The notes below the pieces were generated by a model. It ran no database searches, was not told the origin of the DNA, and worked only from the letters and a program-made list of their open reading frames with translations. Below, piece by piece: positions 2,159-12,480 of a stretch of DNA of 12,937 nt. Position 1 is the stretch's first letter; every line of letters starts with the position of its first letter. The stretch comes from a virus, in UHGV virus genome UHGV-0262016; one strand, 5' to 3'. A program made the translations under genes and the position numbers.

Positions 2159-2362
2159 TTACGGTGCTGGTTTAAGTCCTGCCGGGATTTCGTTATTGTC
2201 CATGTGAATAACTTTATCAACCGGATAACAGTTACCGGGAATTTTCTGTTCTGCTGCGGCAGCCATGCATTCTTTCATTGAACCGTAAATGTCAATAACC
2301 AGGTCAACAGGCTCGCCAGTATTAAGAAAAACAGTCAGAGTGAGGGCAATAGCAGTATTCAT
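2159..2362 (-). CDS. ydfD: Small protein with hydrophobic N-terminus (YdfD-like, putative lysis/membrane protein)
   Basis: ATG at 2362 overlaps the dicB stop (ATGA coupling); SD AAGGA 8 nt upstream. Product MNTAIALTLTVFLNTGEPVDLVIDIYGSMKECMAAAAEQKIPGNCYPVDKVIHMDNNEIPAGLKPAP (67 aa). The track's upstream ATG at 2416 has no usable SD. Symbol by position after dicB. Confidence 0.5.
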   Translation of the reverse strand: MNTAIALTLTVFLNTGEPVDLVIDIYGSMKECMAAAAEQKIPGNCYPVDKVIHMDNNEIPAGLKPAP

Positions 2363-2547
2363 TGCCAGTATCCTTTTTGCATCAGACGTAAACGGGCCAG
2401 CATTGAAACAATGCATATTTGATTTAATAACTCCCGTTCGTGTTTTCTCTTATTAATGGCATCTTCAGTAAATGCAGGGTTACTGATACTGACACCAATT
2501 TCAAAACAACCTTCAGACGTATTAACGTTTGGTAATAATGTTTCCAT
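2359..2547 (-). CDS. dicB: Cell division inhibitor DicB (62 aa)
   Basis: 62-aa ORF METLLPNVNTSEGCFEIGVSISNPAFTEDAINKRKHERELLNQICIVSMLARLRLMQKGYWQ closely matches my recollection of K-12 DicB (MKTLLPNVNTSEGCFEIGV...). SD GAGG 8 nt upstream of ATG at 2547. Lies directly downstream of a DicF-like RNA. Confidence 0.8.
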   Translation of the reverse strand: METLLPNVNTSEGCFEIGVSISNPAFTEDAINKRKHERELLNQICIVSMLARLRLMQKGYWQ

Positions 2548-2564
2548 TATCGCGTCCTCAACAA

Positions 2565-2724
2565 TGAATTTTGTGATGCGGTGCCTGGTGCCTCCAGGTG
2601 ACGTTAACCAGTTAACAATTAACGCCGGATACAGGGAAACCCATAAACACCCGATACGGGGGAACTAATCGCTTTTTAACTGTTCCGCGTGCGCTGAGCC
2701 GCATTCACCGCATCACAAAATTCA
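2565..2724. repeat. Perfect 19-bp inverted repeat (TGAATTTTGTGATGCGGTG at 2565-2583; reverse complement at 2706-2724) enclosing 122 bp between the DicF-like terminator and the dicB ribosome-binding site
   Basis: Both arms read directly and are exact reverse complements. The enclosed segment contains smaller hairpins (CCTGG/CCAGG 2584-2598) and tandem GTTAAC hexamers (2603-2616). Confidence 0.9.
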
Positions 2725-2728
2725 CTTT

Positions 2729-2783
2729 AAAAAGGGCGGACATCAGCCAGCAATGAAACTGATGCCGCCAAAGGTACAAATCA
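2729..2783 (-). ncRNA. dicF: DicF-like small RNA with intrinsic terminator
   Basis: Minus-strand RNA 5'-UUGAUUUGUACCUUUGGCGGCAUCAGUUUCAUUGCUGGCUGAUGUCCGCCCUUUUU-3'. An 11-bp GC-rich stem with one bulge (plus coordinates 2734-2768) is followed by U5. It resembles the K-12 DicF sequence as I recall it (shared UUUGGCGG.AUCAGUUU and CCGCCCUUUUUAAAGUGAAUUUUGUGAUG). Sits immediately upstream of dicB as in Qin. The 5' end is approximate. Confidence 0.6.
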
Positions 2784-3110
2784 ACATGGAGTGTTGTAGC
2801 GGGGTTGTCACTTAAGCGTATGGTCAACCTGACAACCCGGTGTCCTCAACGGGGAAGGAATAACCCCGCCATACTTACCGCCGCGCCATTTCGCGGAGTG
2901 CCACAACCGGAAGCGCACGGTCGACGAAAATTTAACGACAGGCTATCTATGAACCAGCTACCTCGCCGTGCGCTTTCGCGTTATGGTCTGACTTTTCAGG
3001 GAAATATCCTTTCAGTAAACTGTCAGTGCCGGATGCTCACCCGTGTCCGGCGCACGCACTCCACCTCACCCGTGGAGAACTCCTTAATCACCAACCCTCA
3101 GGAGGGTGAA

Positions 3111-3386
3111 ATGTCGACTGAAAATGATGAAATCATTAACTCCCTGATACGCCAGATTAATAATTTTGATAAAGCATTGCAGCATGCTGCGGCGCGTAGC
3201 GATATAACTCTTTTAGCAATTTCATTTCTTGCATCTGTTATGGATAAAAATGAAGTCGTACGACAGAGTCTTGTTGATTATATCGACTCGCTTCAACCCG
3301 GCACTTTCAATCATGAGAGCTTCAATCATGAGAAAGAGCATGTTAAGTCTGTAATTAATTCTCTTATTTTGAATCAAAAGAATTAA
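3111..3386 (+). CDS. Hypothetical 91-aa protein, AT-rich, opposite strand to the surrounding operon (sieB-equivalent slot)
   Basis: ATG at 3111 with SD GGAGG 5 nt upstream. Product MSTENDEIINSLIRQINNFDKALQHAAARSDITLLAISFLASVMDKNEVVRQSLVDYIDSLQPGTFNHESFNHEKEHVKSVINSLILNQKN. The long in-frame extension in track ORF 2805..3386 is Arg-rich and GC-rich, so judged non-coding. No family recognised. Confidence 0.55.
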   Translation: MSTENDEIINSLIRQINNFDKALQHAAARSDITLLAISFLASVMDKNEVVRQSLVDYIDSLQPGTFNHESFNHEKEHVKSVINSLILNQKN

Positions 3387-3684
3387 TGCTTTTTGTTGCA
3401 AAGTAATTTTCAAGGGGTTCTATTCGAATCCCTTTCTTTTTCATTAACAAGCCAAACCCCTTATCAATGATGTCCATTAGTTCCAGGAAGTATTTTTCAT
3501 GTAAATCCTGGTTATCAGAGAGCTGCTTCTCTTCGTACAGACCGATAAAGGCACGACGCACGTTACCGGATATAGTATCGATGGTTTCTTTTTCTACGGT
3601 ACTCAGGTCAAGAGTCGCCAGTTGGGAACGAACTATATTCGCTGCCATTTCCTGGAATTGCATTGGTAAATCTTTAAATTCCAT
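3364..3684 (-). CDS. Hypothetical 106-aa protein, AT-rich; 3' end overlaps the convergent plus-strand gene by 23 bp
   Basis: ATG at 3684 with SD GAGG 6 nt upstream, 22 bp downstream of the ydfC-like stop. Product MEFKDLPMQFQEMAANIVRSQLATLDLSTVEKETIDTISGNVRRAFIGLYEEKQ... No family recognised. Confidence 0.5.
   Translation of the reverse strand: MEFKDLPMQFQEMAANIVRSQLATLDLSTVEKETIDTISGNVRRAFIGLYEEKQLSDNQDLHEKYFLELMDIIDKGFGLLMKKKGIRIEPLENYFATKSINSFDSK
3412..3442 (+). terminator. Intrinsic terminator for the plus-strand 91-aa gene
   Basis: AAGGGGTTC / GAATCCCTT stem (9 bp including one G-U pair), 5-nt loop, then TCTTTTTC. Lies inside the 3' end of the convergent minus-strand ORF. Confidence 0.55.
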
Positions 3685-3706
3685 TATTAGCCTCGTTGGT
3701 TAGCTA

Positions 3707-3925
3707 TTAACGCGGGTATGTAATCATTCTGGCAATGCTTAATGCCGCTGCTTTTTCCAGCCTAGTGATATCCTGCTCCAGAGCGGACAGATTTTCAGCC
3801 TGCTTAGCCCCGGCTTCATTGGCCCATTTCAGATCCTGCGCTGCATTAATTTTCTGGCGCATCCACTCATAAAGCTCATCATCGGTATAGTCTGGCGCGA
3901 TGATGACGGGTTCTCGTTTCTGCAT
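3707..3925 (-). CDS. ydfC: YdfC-like small protein (72 aa)
   Basis: ATG at 3925 with SD GAGG 7 nt upstream. Product MQKREPVIIAPDYTDDELYEWMRQKINAAQDLKWANEAGAKQAENLSALEQDITRLEKAAALSIARMITYPR. Length and position match K-12 Qin ydfC as recalled. Confidence 0.6.
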   Translation of the reverse strand: MQKREPVIIAPDYTDDELYEWMRQKINAAQDLKWANEAGAKQAENLSALEQDITRLEKAAALSIARMITYPR

Positions 3926-3954
3926 ACTGATTCCTCGCGGTGCTGTTTCGCTTA

Positions 3955-4083
3955 TCAGCCGCTAGATTTTGCCGAGCTGGAAAGCGCCTGTTTAAATTCG
4001 CTGAAGCTGAGAGTTTCTTCGCCTTCGGCAAGGCCTTCGAAGTATTCTTCGTAAGCCTTTTCCATGATTGTGTCGAAATCCAT
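3955..4083 (-). CDS. ydfB: YdfB-like small acidic protein (42 aa)
   Basis: Hand-translated ORF not in the track (below its length cutoff): MDFDTIMEKAYEEYFEGLAEGEETLSFSEFKQALSSSAKSSG, stop TGA at 3957..3955. SD GGTGA 5 nt upstream; ATG lies 1 nt after the upstream gene's stop. Length and order match Qin ydfB as recalled. Preferred over the overlapping track ORF 3879..4088. Confidence 0.5.
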   Translation of the reverse strand: MDFDTIMEKAYEEYFEGLAEGEETLSFSEFKQALSSSAKSSG

Positions 4084-4084
4084 A

Positions 4085-4240
4085 TCACTCACCTGAGTTT
4101 CTTTCCAGCCAGCGACGGGCACCATTTTCGGTTTTAAACGTTTTGCTTTTGGTATACGTCATCGCGGTGAACGTGCCGTCTTGGTTGGGAAACACGCCGT
4201 ACACCAGAGATTCGTTGTTGCCAAGAACGATAGTATCCAT
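4085..4240 (-). CDS. ydfA: YdfA-like small protein (51 aa); an alternative upstream start at 4321 would give 78 aa
   Basis: Internal ATG at 4240 with SD GAGG 5 nt upstream gives MDTIVLGNNESLVYGVFPNQDGTFTAMTYTKSKTFKTENGARRWLERNSGE (51 aa), matching the recalled ydfA length. The upstream ATG at 4321 (SD GAGG 9 nt) cannot be excluded. Confidence 0.55.
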   Translation of the reverse strand: MDTIVLGNNESLVYGVFPNQDGTFTAMTYTKSKTFKTENGARRWLERNSGE

Positions 4241-4421
4241 GCTGACCTCATTTCCCCTTAACGCCGGGGTAGCGGAACAAAAACCTGCTGCATAGTTATT
4301 AAAGTTGAACCCTGCCGTCATGTTCTTACGCCTCGGGCTGGCTACTTAACCCCTGACCACTGCCTGGTAACTCGAAGTATTGCCCTGCGTTCTGTGGGGC
4401 GGGGTGGGTTGGTATGGAAAA

Positions 4422-4464
4422 ACTATAGGTAATGCCTAATTATTTGTCAATAGGCTATGCCTAA
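4422..4464 (-). promoter_or_regulatory. PL-like leftward promoter with overlapping operators (OL1 4425-4439, OL2 4450-4464)
   Basis: On the minus strand: -35 TTGACA (plus 4445-4450), 17-bp spacer, -10 TATAGT (plus 4422-4427). Operators ATAGGT-aat-GCCTAA and ATAGGC-tat-GCCTAA, centres 25 bp apart, match the OR palindromes. Confidence 0.6.
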
Positions 4465-4558
4465 TAATTTAGATGCAACCTAATAAGTGATGGTATGTGG
4501 GAGATGTAGTAGGAGTTAACTAACGGGATCTAGGAGTTTCCCGTCGGACCATATAAGT

Positions 4559-5035
4559 TTAAGTTCCTGTCTTGGTGATGTTCTGGCTTTTCCGTTTTGA
4601 TTCTTGATTTTTCAAATAGTTACCTACCTTCATTTCCATTGCGGCAATGTAGGCGCGAACGTCATGATCAACCCAACTAGGCTCCGTAGCATTTCCAGAT
4701 AAGAGGAAAGCTACAATTGCTCTTTTTTCATCAGAGGCGGCTTGATAAAGGCTGTTTATGTCTAAAAGTTCACTTTTTGTATTTGAAGTGGATGGGGTTG
4801 GTATGGGGTATTCGTTAAGCCCCCAATGCTCTGGACCAACCACATCAGAAAAGAAACGCCATAGTTCTGGAAGTTTATCTTTACTTATCGAACCTTTCTT
4901 AATCCAGTCATGGATTGATGGTGGTTGGACTTTGAAATGACGTGCGATCTCCGCCTTTGATTTGACGGCTCCTGATGCAATTTTTTTGTTAATGGCCTGC
5001 TCTATCGCTCGGCCCAAGTCTTTACCACTAAGCAT
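4559..5035 (-). CDS. racR: Prophage repressor, HTH (XRE/CI-like), 158 aa, RacR-like
   Basis: 158-aa ORF with an HTH-like segment (SKAEIARHFKVQPPSIHDWIKKG); SD GGAG 11 nt upstream. Divergent from a cro-like gene and flanked by operator palindromes. The 158/107/141-aa trio matches the Rac racR-ydaS-ydaT layout as recalled; symbol by synteny and length. Confidence 0.65.
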   Translation of the reverse strand: MLSGKDLGRAIEQAINKKIASGAVKSKAEIARHFKVQPPSIHDWIKKGSISKDKLPELWRFFSDVVGPEHWGLNEYPIPTPSTSNTKSELLDINSLYQAASDEKRAIVAFLLSGNATEPSWVDHDVRAYIAAMEMKVGNYLKNQESKRKSQNITKTGT

Positions 5036-5063
5036 TGCTTAATAGTCTCCTATGCGCATCGCG

Positions 5064-5132
5064 TTAGGCAATCCCTATGTTTAGTGCATTAGGCATAGCC
5101 TATTGACAATTGCGTTAGGCGAAGCCTAATAT
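5064..5132 (+). promoter_or_regulatory. OR/PR region: three operators (OR3 5064-5078, OR2 5089-5103, OR1 5115-5129) and the rightward promoter
   Basis: OR1 TTAGGCgaaGCCTAA is a perfect palindrome; OR2 TTAGGCataGCCTAT; OR3 TTAGGCaatCCCTAT is degenerate. Centres are 25-26 bp apart. -35 TTGACA 5103-5108, 18-bp spacer, -10 TAATAT 5127-5132; OR1 overlaps the spacer and -10. Confidence 0.65.
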
Positions 5133-5159
5133 CATTGTGTGTTTTTTGGAGTTCATTCG

Positions 5160-5483
5160 ATGAAAAAAGAGAACTATTCATTCAAACGGGCTTGTGCTGT
5201 TGTCGGTGGGCAATCAGCAATGGCTAGGCTTTTAGGTGTATCTCCTCCAAGCGTAAATCAATGGATCAAAGGTGTACGTCAGTTGCCTGCTGAGAGATGT
5301 CCTGCGATTGAACGAGCAACAAAAGGTGGTGTCCTGTGTGAAGAACTTCGTCCTGATGTTGATTGGTCATACTTACGACGCCCGTCATGTTATTCGCAGA
5401 ATATGTCGATGAAGCAACCAAATGACGAAAACGATCATACCCGAAGCATCAAGAGGCAAATGATTCATGAAAATCAAACATGA
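5160..5483 (+). CDS. ydaS: Cro/CII-like HTH protein (YdaS-like)
   Basis: ATG at 5160 with SD GGAG 8 nt upstream, about 28 nt after the PR -10. HTH-like GGQSAMARLLGVSPPSVNQWIKG. Divergent from the repressor. Confidence 0.6.
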   Translation: MKKENYSFKRACAVVGGQSAMARLLGVSPPSVNQWIKGVRQLPAERCPAIERATKGGVLCEELRPDVDWSYLRRPSCYSQNMSMKQPNDENDHTRSIKRQMIHENQT

Positions 5484-5892
5484 GCACATCCGCATGGCGA
5501 TGAATGCCTGGGCGCGTCCGGATGGTGAAAAAGTTCCGGTAGCCGAGATAACCAGGGTTTATTTCGAGCTGGGCATGACGTTTCCTGAGCTGTACGACGA
5601 CAGCCATCCGGAAGCCCTGGCCCGCAATACTCAGAAAATTTTCCGCTGGGTAGAGAAAGACACCCCTGATGCTGTTGAAAAAATTCAGGCGTTGTTACCA
5701 GCGATCGAAAAAGCAATGCCGCCTCTGCTGGTGGCCCGAATGCGCAGCCACAGTTCAGCCTTTTTTCGGGAACTGGTGGAGACGCGGGAACGACTGGTGA
5801 GAGACGCTGATGATTTTGTCGCAGTGGCGATCGCTGGTTTCAATCAGATGAATCGTGGTGGCCCGGCGGGAAATGCCGTGGTCGTTCATTAA
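5467..5892 (+). CDS. ydaT: YdaT-like protein (141 aa)
   Basis: ATG at 5467 overlaps the end of the previous gene; SD GAGG 10 nt upstream. Length and position as in Rac ydaT. Symbol by synteny. Confidence 0.55.
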   Translation: MKIKHEHIRMAMNAWARPDGEKVPVAEITRVYFELGMTFPELYDDSHPEALARNTQKIFRWVEKDTPDAVEKIQALLPAIEKAMPPLLVARMRSHSSAFFRELVETRERLVRDADDFVAVAIAGFNQMNRGGPAGNAVVVH

Positions 5893-9427: not shown

Positions 9428-9646
9428 GTGCCTACATTATTCAGAAAAGAATATCCGCGAAAAAGTAGAGCGACAGAATTTTTGTTTCTCATTCTGTTTA
9501 TCGTGTTGATGACACCGATATCCCCGCTAATTTTTGTCTGGGCAATCGGGAAAATAATTGAGCCAGTTATTGAATTGTATAACGACGTGGTATGGGCGTC
9601 ATTCAACACACTGCACAATAAAATTAATCCGTATAAGGAAAGCTGA
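9428..9646 (+). CDS. Small membrane protein (72 aa, one predicted transmembrane helix)
   Basis: GTG at 9428 with SD AAGGAG 6 nt upstream, directly after the previous stop. Hydrophobic core FLFLILFIVLMTPISPLIFVWAIG. The track's TTG start at 9407 was rejected. Confidence 0.4.
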   Translation: MPTLFRKEYPRKSRATEFLFLILFIVLMTPISPLIFVWAIGKIIEPVIELYNDVVWASFNTLHNKINPYKES

Positions 9647-9647
9647 T

Positions 9648-10013
9648 ATGGCACTGACGAAAAAACAACGCGCAGAACTGCGCATGAAGTTCGGTGGTCG
9701 CTGTGCTTATTGCGGCTGTGAACTTGGCGAAAAGTGGCATGCAGACCATGTAAAACCGGTCATTCGTTTTGCTGGAAATATGCTTCACCAGGAGCGTGAC
9801 GATATATCCAACATGGTTCCGGCATGCCACCCATGCAATCTGCACAAGCATTGCAGTAGCCTGGAAGATTATCGGCGAATTATCAGTGATGGTCGTCGTG
9901 AATTCCTTGCGTCCGGGAAAGGCAAAGCGCTGGTTCGTATGGGGTTGGTTGAAATGAAATCTGACCCGGTTGTGTTCTGGTTTGAAAAATATCAAGAAGG
10001 GGCTACGGCATGA
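9648..10013 (+). CDS. HNH endonuclease (121 aa)
   Basis: ATG at 9648 with SD AAGGAA 7 nt upstream. HNH/zinc-finger nuclease signature: CAYCGCEL...WHADHVKP...N...PACHPCNLHK. Confidence 0.7.
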   Translation: MALTKKQRAELRMKFGGRCAYCGCELGEKWHADHVKPVIRFAGNMLHQERDDISNMVPACHPCNLHKHCSSLEDYRRIISDGRREFLASGKGKALVRMGLVEMKSDPVVFWFEKYQEGATA

Positions 10014-11087: not shown

Positions 11088-11423
11088 GAAGGAAACAAAA
11101 CAGAAACAACAATTGCCGTTACCTGTTGTTACCATGGCAAGTAAACGCATCTCAGGCGAGCGCATTGCACCGTTCTGACGCAGATAAATTAGCCTGGATA
11201 GATGGTGCTGGCAATAAAAAATAGCGTTTTCTTATCGGTGTCGGTAAGATTGCTGCGGGTGCTTGAGGCTGTCTGCCTCGGGCATGCCACTGTAAGGCAG
11301 GCAGAGAAAAGCCCCAGTTAACATTACGCGTCCGGCAAGACGCTTAACATTAATCTGAGGCTCCCTATGCATGACAACATCAGGTTAGCCTCTTACGTGC
11401 CGAAAGGCAAGGAGAAGCAGGCT

Positions 11424-11579
11424 ATGAAGCAGCAAAAGGCGATGTTAATCGCCCTGATCGTCATCTGTTTAACCGTCATAGTGACGGCACTGGTAACGAG
11501 GAAAGACCTCTGCGAGGTACGAATCCGAACCGGCCAGACGGAGGTCGCTGTCTTCGTAGACTACGAATCTAGAGAGTAA
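11424..11579 (+). CDS. hokD: Hok/Gef-family type I toxin (51 aa), HokD/RelF-like
   Basis: Product MKQQKAMLIALIVICLTVIVTALVTRKDLCEVRIRTGQTEVAVFVDYESRE is a Hok-family signature, nearly identical to HokD/RelF as recalled. SD GGAG 9 nt upstream. An in-frame upstream ATG at 11367 (SD GAGG 6 nt upstream) gives a 70-aa mok-like extended frame. Confidence 0.8.
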   Translation: MKQQKAMLIALIVICLTVIVTALVTRKDLCEVRIRTGQTEVAVFVDYESRE

Positions 11580-11976: not shown

Positions 11977-11994
11977 TGATGGGTATTGTGCTCT

Positions 11995-12480
11995 ATGGCT
12001 GAGATTGTTGAAGGAGTGCATTACCTTACGGTTGATGATCTTGTTGAAATCAATCGTTCCCTAATTGAATTACAGACGCCAGATGAGCCCGTTGGTGTTC
12101 TGAGTCCAGATAACTTAAGTTCTTCTCAGGCCCGTCCCAGCATGGTTCGATGGTATGAACAGACTAATGACATGTTTGTACTGGCATCGGTATTGATTGA
12201 AAGTCTGATTCAGAATCACCCGTTTGCTAATGCGAACAAACGAACAGCTATGATGGCTGGTTACGTCTTCTTGTTGTTGAATGGCTATGAGTTAACAGCA
12301 CCAGGCGATGAAATCGTGGAAATGGCAGAGGGACTGGCCTGCAAAATCTATACTCGAGAAGATCTCGAGAACTGGTTGTGTTATTGGTCTCGCGCGTATG
12401 ACAGCCGGGAATTATGTAAAACAGGCGCAACTATTGTTTTGTATGAAACTATCAAGCTTAAAATAGAACAGCAAAACTAA
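11995..12480 (+). CDS. Doc-family (Fic/Doc fold) toxin, 161 aa
   Basis: Contains the Doc signature H-x-F-x-N-A-N-K-R (HPFANANKRTAMMAGYVFLLLNGYEL); the N-terminal segment (YLTVDDLVEINRSLIE) is also Doc-like. Start taken as ATG 11995; a TTG at 11986 is possible. Confidence 0.75.
   Translation: MAEIVEGVHYLTVDDLVEINRSLIELQTPDEPVGVLSPDNLSSSQARPSMVRWYEQTNDMFVLASVLIESLIQNHPFANANKRTAMMAGYVFLLLNGYELTAPGDEIVEMAEGLACKIYTREDLENWLCYWSRAYDSRELCKTGATIVLYETIKLKIEQQN

Follow-up and report, generated by a model that had tools for sequence, protein, structure and literature searches.

A dicF-locus allele with exchanged pairing modules in a lambdoid prophage

DicF is a textbook prophage small RNA (sRNA), and to our knowledge the work on it so far treats DicF as a single sequence. 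In E. coli K-12 its 5′ end is made by RNase E, its 3′ end is made by termination or by RNase III, and it is Hfq-dependent. According to Azam and Vanderpool, DicF reportedly pairs inside the coding region of manX. Pairing with ftsZ and pykA has been assigned to the 3′ region of DicF and pairing with xylR to its 5′ end (Balasubramanian et al., PMC5069750). In the K-12 prophage Qin, dicF lies between ydfC and dicB in the dicB operon. Here we describe a variant of this locus in a viral sequence of 12,937 nucleotides (UHGV-0262016, referred to throughout as the window), which is a mosaic lambdoid prophage. Its features around the dicF slot are:

2159..2362 (−), DUF1482 (ydfD-like) gene; Pfam PF07358, 72 bits
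2359..2547 (−), dicB, cell-division inhibitor of 62 aa; Pfam PF05358, 130.1 bits over residues 1-62 of 62
2548..2733 (−), dicB leader, with an STnc100-like element and a second variable patch
2729..2782 (−), DicF-slot RNA, variant allele B; 5′ arm, terminator hairpin and U-run
2735..2769 (−), hairpin GGCGGCAUCAG-UUUCAUUGCUGG-CUGAUG(U)CCGCC, from folds and alignment A2
2770..2782 (−), single-stranded 5′ arm GAUUUGUACCUUU of 13 nt, from the K-12 alignment; unpaired in the fold
2783..2797 (−), variable spacer adjoining the RNA upstream; 10 of 15 positions as in K-12
2802..2838 (−), upstream hairpin (GGGUUGUCA...UGACAACCC), from the fold; 100% identical to K-12 Qin
3364..3684 (−), 106-aa phage ORF between ydfC and the DicF slot, function unassigned; phrog_6937, 232 bits
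3707..3925 (−), ydfC; 97% identical to K-12 YdfC; phrog_1744
4085..4321 (−), ydfA-like gene (DUF1391), first gene of the leftward operon; Pfam PF07151, 92 bits
4422..4450 (−), promoter-like TTGACA-17-TATAGT with 11 of 12 matches in a consensus scan; candidate operon promoter

An sRNA-like element in the dicF slot

The order of these genes is that of the Qin dicB operon, which places the window RNA where DicF is expected, in the dicB operon of a lambdoid prophage. The window DicB is 87% identical to that of K-12, and the DUF1482 gene probably starts at the ATG overlapping the dicB stop, as its relatives are annotated. The U-run of the RNA ends 181 nt upstream of dicB. Between them, the leader matched the Rfam STnc100 model (RF02076) at 2570-2722 (−) with 34.3 bits, below the gathering score of 47, and the K-12 dicB leader scored only 34.4 bits against the same model. 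STnc100 therefore appears to be a conserved lambdoid leader that follows the DicF slot; eleven copies have been reported in EDL933 (PMC5331693). Within the otherwise conserved leader lies a second variable patch (about 2640-2674, minus strand), sharply bounded and with a 12-nt indel relative to K-12. Many versions of this patch exist and they assort independently of DicF class, for which reason co-evolution of the DicF allele with the leader patch was rejected.

The RNA reads 5′-GAUUUGUACCUUUGGCGGCAUCAGUUUCAUUGCUGGCUGAUGUCCGCCCUUUUU-3′ from 2782 to 2729 on the minus strand. By inspection, the hairpin has 11 base pairs, one bulged U and a 12-nt loop, followed by five U; in the computed minimum-free-energy fold, two further G-U pairs bring the total to 13 and shorten the loop to 8 nt. 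This fold has an energy of −21.0 kcal/mol (z = −4.8; 0 of 200 dinucleotide shuffles folded equally well), makes up 87% of the ensemble, and agrees with the centroid fold. The window RNA thus shows the arrangement of DicF, a single-stranded 5′ arm followed by a terminator hairpin and a U-run, and from 2300 to 4700 the minus strand has no terminator-like site other than this hairpin. The start of the arm at 2782 is taken from alignment, which makes it a putative 5′ end.

Comparison with K-12 divides the region into segments of very different conservation. Upstream, 200 of 203 positions are identical (2798-3000), including all 53 of those at 2798-2850 that cover the upstream hairpin, and the first ~59 nt downstream (about 2675-2733) are near-identical by eye, though uncounted; overall, the sequence on either side of the RNA is ~98% identical to K-12. 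Across the RNA itself (2734-2782), only 35 of 59 aligned columns are identical (~60%). The two RNAs have in common the base of the stem (GGCGG/CCGCC) and the U-run, as well as the same slot between ydfC and dicB, the same operon and the same architecture of arm, terminator hairpin and UUUUU. Replaced are the 5′ arm (UUUCUGGUGACGUUU in K-12, GAUUUGUACCUUU in the window), the loop, and the 3′ side of the upper stem; across spacer and arm, the window has 8 nt fewer than K-12. The K-12 stem is imperfect and interrupted, whereas that of the window allele is perfect, with a correspondingly more stable hairpin (−21.0 versus −15.9 kcal/mol). Judged by alignment, a block with sharp boundaries has been replaced, and this block coincides with the mature RNA.

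A first-pass annotation of the window had called a DicF-like element at this position on the minus strand, with a terminator stem and flanks matching DicF and an internal stem-loop that differs, quoted as UUUCAUUGCUGGCUGAUG (2758 to 2741, minus strand). The element is present there and folds as arm, hairpin and U-run. Its resemblance to DicF holds for the stem base, the U-run and the sequence outside, but does not extend to the 3′ strand of the upper stem. The loop does differ; the divergence is wider than described, however, and takes in the 5′ arm and the 3′ half of the stem. Alignment to the Rfam DicF model (RF00039), proposed in the same annotation as a check, gave a mixed outcome. The model aligned end to end (1-52 of 52) at 2734-2782 (−), 186 nt upstream of dicB, but scored 38.7 bits against a curated gathering score of 48 (E = 4.4e-7 in a 401-nt search), compared with 76.7 bits for K-12 DicF. 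The match appears only under E-value thresholds; an Rfam scan of the window at gathering thresholds reports only sok.

A score under the curated threshold is what an unrelated hairpin that merely looks like DicF might produce. We consider such a chance resemblance highly improbable, since the RNA has the same position between ydfC and dicB, since identity to K-12 is ~98% for 200 nt upstream and again downstream into dicB, and since chimeric alleles bridge it to canonical DicF, such as one with the canonical arm on a stem like that of the window (class D, below). The K-12 alignment, the identity by segment and the chimeric alleles effectively refute it, and on the same comparisons the homology of the locus to dicF is beyond doubt.

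Loss of the canonical target sites and new predicted pairing

Pairing was predicted with a windowed duplex scan that combines the ViennaRNA hybrid energy with the cost of opening both partners (accessibility-corrected), as hybrid energy alone gave over-extended and meaningless duplexes. For K-12 DicF the scan returned, by target, target position, RNA nucleotides and total energy:

ftsZ, −28..−7, nt 32-53, −7.2 kcal/mol (up to −8.3)
xylR, +9..+20, nt 6-15, −13.5 kcal/mol
pykA, −19..+1, nt 26-43, −11.9 kcal/mol
manX, +34..+53, nt 35-54, −10.0 kcal/mol

The manX duplex at +34..+53 lies inside the coding region, where DicF reportedly pairs with this target. For ftsZ, xylR and pykA the DicF regions found by the scan agree with experiment (PMC5069750). 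The same scan gave no duplex for the window allele at the canonical ftsZ, manX and pykA sites. With xylR the total was only −0.7 kcal/mol, against −13.5 for K-12 DicF, and with pykA it was −5.6 kcal/mol at an unrelated weak site (+51..+59), against −11.9. The window allele therefore lacks the complementarity that the 3′ region of DicF has to the ribosome binding site of ftsZ, as well as that to xylR, pykA and the manX coding region. The replaced segments account for this, because the 3′ strand of the stem is the part of canonical DicF that pairs with ftsZ, pykA and manX, and the arm is the part that pairs with xylR. With both pairing modules exchanged, no repression of ftsZ, pykA, manX or xylR through the known duplexes would be expected.

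The 5′ arm is predicted to make new contacts. A site in the ftsZ leader at −23..−11 (CAGGCACAAAUCG) would pair with nucleotides 1-12 of the RNA, where GAUUUGUACCU pairs with ftsZ AGGCACAAAUC at a hybrid energy of −11.5 kcal/mol and a total of −6.0 or −7.4 kcal/mol (in a 180-nt or a 90-nt context, respectively). A second predicted site covers the ribosome binding site of manX (−12..+3; total −7.7 kcal/mol), also through the 5′ arm, and reflects the anti-Shine-Dalgarno-like motif ACCUUU. Among phage-encoded targets in the window none scored better than −7.2 kcal/mol and none was compelling.

The ftsZ site raises the question of whether the window allele is a functional equivalent of DicF, which represses ftsZ and causes filamentation through a new arm at −23..−11 beside the Shine-Dalgarno sequence, so that the module as a whole is preserved. 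The duplex has 10 bp with one mismatch and lies within the segment of the ftsZ leader that is covered by canonical DicF, its total energy is comparable to the −7.2 to −8.3 kcal/mol of the canonical pairing, and a longer precursor form would add CUCC:GGAG pairing. Among 240 random natural 90-nt windows, just 4 reach such a score, which puts the match in the top ~2% of the background, and none of the 20 translation-initiation regions of the window that were tested equals it. The pairing hinges, however, on the exact 5′ end of the RNA, as the total falls to −2.4 kcal/mol if the RNA starts 2 nt further downstream. It is also absent from the alleles B′, C, F and G described below and from the SCU-113 variant, which has the same stem-loop as the window and differs by one base in the ftsZ seed. 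Furthermore, a 7-mer seed match is expected by chance in a few percent of translation-initiation regions and four targets were inspected, so that the match is a modest one (p of about 0.02 for one target, with four examined). Owing to the dependence on the 5′ end, the absence from sister alleles and the number of targets inspected, the case for ftsZ targeting by the window allele is weak, a testable possibility rather than a finding, and we regard full functional equivalence as unlikely.

These predictions bear on two further suggestions of the first-pass annotation. That a divergent variant could have an altered target set is consistent with the pairing scans, in which four canonical sites are lost. 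That the RNA forms a cell-division control module together with dicB is borne out as far as the locus goes, this being the dicF slot of a Qin-like dicB operon. A role through ftsZ should not be assumed along with it, because the canonical ftsZ-pairing residues are gone and the sole replacement pairing is modest and allele-specific. On sequence grounds, the element should be labeled a dicF-locus allele with exchanged pairing modules and not, in a functional sense, DicF, since it has the same place, homology and architecture but falls short of the model threshold and is without every validated target complementarity.

A mosaic family of alleles at the dicF slot

Allele scans were made in IMG/VR between the conserved flanks, in one genome per species by the downstream sequence alone, and in the 80 IMG/VR loci with the closest DicB; a census covered 5426 complete E. 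coli genomes. The slot holds discrete allele classes, A to G, with at least seven mosaic alleles (genomes and places are from the census):

Class A, canonical; 3947 genomes, 6593 places
Class B, the window allele; this stem-loop type in 84 genomes, 105 places
Class B′, the B stem-loop with arm GAUUACCUUUU
Class C, the B′ arm with stem-loop GGCGGGUAUC...GAUACCCGCC; 92 genomes, 93 places
Class D, the canonical arm with a B-like stem and a different loop; 290 genomes, 294 places
Class E, a short form
Class F (E. ruysiae and others), B-like stem, other loop and arm, different upstream region
Class G (Shigella flexneri), B-like stem, other loop and arm, different upstream region

The variant is rare. 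Of the B-type records, 16 reach ≥99% over the 59-nt query, and E. coli C5, KS-NP019 and OkiPb01716 are examples of strains with the exact allele. Searched for exactly in GTDB, at one genome per species, the variant stem-loop gave 0 matches, and the variant was not matched in 50,697 phage records, 22 of which contain canonical DicF. The variant sequence did not occur in the papers covered by a full-text search, a scope that excluded the EHEC dicF paper and the 1994 survey of dicF-like sequences, and such alleles may have been described earlier. RefSeq carries no ncRNA annotation at the variant, which is uninformative because canonical DicF is likewise unannotated.

The sister alleles B′, C, F and G, found in E. 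coli, E. ruysiae, Shigella flexneri and IMG/VR prophages, share with the window allele the flanks or the dicB leader and the base of the hairpin, and B′ and G have the same or nearly the same stem-loop. Their 5′ arms differ from that of the window (GAUUACCUUUU, GAGACCUUU, GAAGUACCAGUU), and none contains the complement of ftsZ −23..−11. Across the alleles, arms and stem-loops occur in several combinations, a pattern that is, as read from the sequences, one of recombinational mosaicism. The alleles pair in different registers and one consensus structure misfits alignment A2; for this reason individual folds are given instead of a covariation count. Among the 80 loci with the closest DicB, a sample biased toward the DicB type of the window, 74 were classifiable, of which 51 were variant, 20 canonical and 3 without a hairpin. 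Ten of the 74 had the exact B stem-loop (7 of these 10 with the arm of the window), 8 were near-B loop variants, 32 were C or C-like and 1 was E-like.

Class D illustrates how the modules are combined. Found in E. coli O157:H7, it has the GGCGGCAUC...GAUGUCCGCC stem of the window allele but another loop (UGUUUGCCCAUGAAC), and it keeps the canonical 5′ arm, so that xylR pairing is retained (−13.6 kcal/mol) while the canonical ftsZ duplex is predicted to be lost. Most class D loci are from O157:H7 (e.g., NZ_AP018488.1, 2029210-2029269; loci L006, L084 and L138), and in one strain a single D copy stands beside three canonical copies. This fits the report of "four copies of dicF" in EHEC (PMC7873438), of which class D is probably one; it is possibly also the 56-nt DicF_3 of EDL933 (PMC5331693).

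Like the window allele, class D falls below the Rfam cut-off. Scores against the DicF model were 43.5 bits for D, 38.7 for B and 34.1 for B′, and C and E gave no match; among classes A to E, the ones that were scored, the cut-off captures the canonical allele only. Annotation at that cut-off would miss variant dicF alleles.

With at least seven stem-loop classes and at least five different arms between blocks that are ~98% conserved, the dicF slot could be seen as a hypervariable modular sRNA cassette, in which swaps of arm and stem-loop give each lineage its own host regulon and in which the window allele has regained ftsZ targeting convergently. We offer this reading tentatively and think it doubtful as a whole. 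If expressed, the alleles would form a natural seed-swap series linking the phenotypes of DicF (filamentation, metabolic repression, toxicity and EHEC virulence control) to pairing modules, and could reveal how sRNAs acquired by horizontal transfer come to gain or lose targets in the host. Should the alleles not be expressed, the slot would be conserved mainly as a terminator ahead of dicB.

Small RNA or terminator, and neighboring loci

We infer transcription, processing, Hfq dependence and trans-acting regulation of the window RNA by analogy with K-12 DicF. The consensus scan found no promoter-like site directly upstream of the RNA, and the transcript would be that of the leftward operon, running from the promoter-like site (4450-4422) through the ydfA-like gene, ydfC, the 106-aa ORF, the RNA, dicB and DUF1482. 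Termination at its own hairpin and U-run would make the 3′ end and limit read-through into the toxic dicB. The 5′ end would come from endonucleolytic processing in the A/U-rich GUUGAUUUGU stretch (GUUGA|UUUGU); the 5′ end of the RNA, as aligned, falls at an A/U-rich GA|UUU stretch, and the variable spacer at 2783..2797 probably holds the processing site. The hairpin at 2802-2838 (−), located 20 nt upstream of this RNA, may serve in the processing of the operon transcript. An RNA of ~50 nt with a free 13-nt 5′ arm would thus be released. Any action in trans would go through new seeds, namely the 5′ arm with its anti-Shine-Dalgarno-like ACCUUU and perhaps the loop AUUGCUGG, and the target set may still include ftsZ by way of the new arm duplex. 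Since the stem has fewer imperfections than in canonical DicF, its 3′ strand would be less available, and a role in trans would rest mainly on the arm and loop.

This last feature also counts against reading the element as an sRNA, as the hairpin looks like a plain terminator with a poorly accessible 3′ strand. The early-left operons of lambdoid phages have tL-type intrinsic terminators, which the element resembles in having a G+C-rich hairpin and a U-run before a kil-like toxic gene in an early-left operon. It could therefore be an intrinsic terminator or attenuator and nothing else, gating dicB and leaving a fragment with no role in trans, its differences from DicF being neutral mosaic variation. 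The near-perfect, stable stem, its standing as the only terminator-like site in the operon, and the sharing of the GGCGG/CCGCC base and U-run, but not of arm or loop, by all alleles fit this reading well, as does the mosaic leader patch nearby, which points to local recombination being common here. A terminator role is, however, no bar to an sRNA role, as canonical DicF is both, which shows that the terminator of the dicF slot also yields a regulatory RNA and sets it apart from tL-type terminators. B-type alleles, moreover, keep the 3′ half of the loop (AUUGCUGG) and the ACCUUU arm motif across several contexts, and the variable block matches the mature RNA almost exactly in extent, between ~98% identical blocks, which is not what neutral decay of a terminator predicts. 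This is the main rival explanation and sequence data cannot separate it from the sRNA reading; we judge it somewhat unlikely, though a serious contender.

The reading we favor, with moderate confidence, is that the dicF locus of a Qin/Rac-like lambdoid prophage here has a rare, recombinant allele, which, if it acts in trans, would use new seeds and reach a different set of targets. The element does exist and is of an ordinary kind, being a variant of a prophage terminator-sRNA with a putative function.

Several other observations concern the neighborhood of the slot. In E. coli RMDEC364 (L128; NZ_CM177020.1, about 1550598) a truncated ydfC is joined directly to the B-type hairpin at a deletion junction, with a Rha-family gene in the place of dicB downstream; the hairpin is thus kept there even with the 5′ arm and dicB lost. 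Antisense to the operon in the window, a 193-aa ORF with a TTG start (2805-3386, plus strand) begins 22 nt from the 5′ end of the RNA. With no Pfam or PHROG match, it is unlikely to be a genuine gene; in E. coli C5 a comparable ORF carries the label of hypothetical protein.

The window as a whole was not found intact in complete E. coli genomes, where the best match covers 61% of it at 94.7% identity. Beyond the promoter region, the immunity region (4559-5892) resembles that of prophage Rac, with a leftward 158-aa ORF, which had no Pfam or PHROG match, divergent from a ydaS-like gene (Cro/HTH) and a ydaT-like gene. Replication genes lie further right, followed by an HNH endonuclease ORF (9558-10013, plus strand). 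To the right of these genes there is also a complete hok/sok toxin-antitoxin module (11257-11429 and 11367-11579, both on the plus strand), with 109.6 bits for Rfam sok (gathering score 59) and a 70-aa ORF that matches Pfam Hok/Gef with 79.8 bits, as well as a Fic/DOC-family ORF with a TTG start (11986-12480, plus strand).
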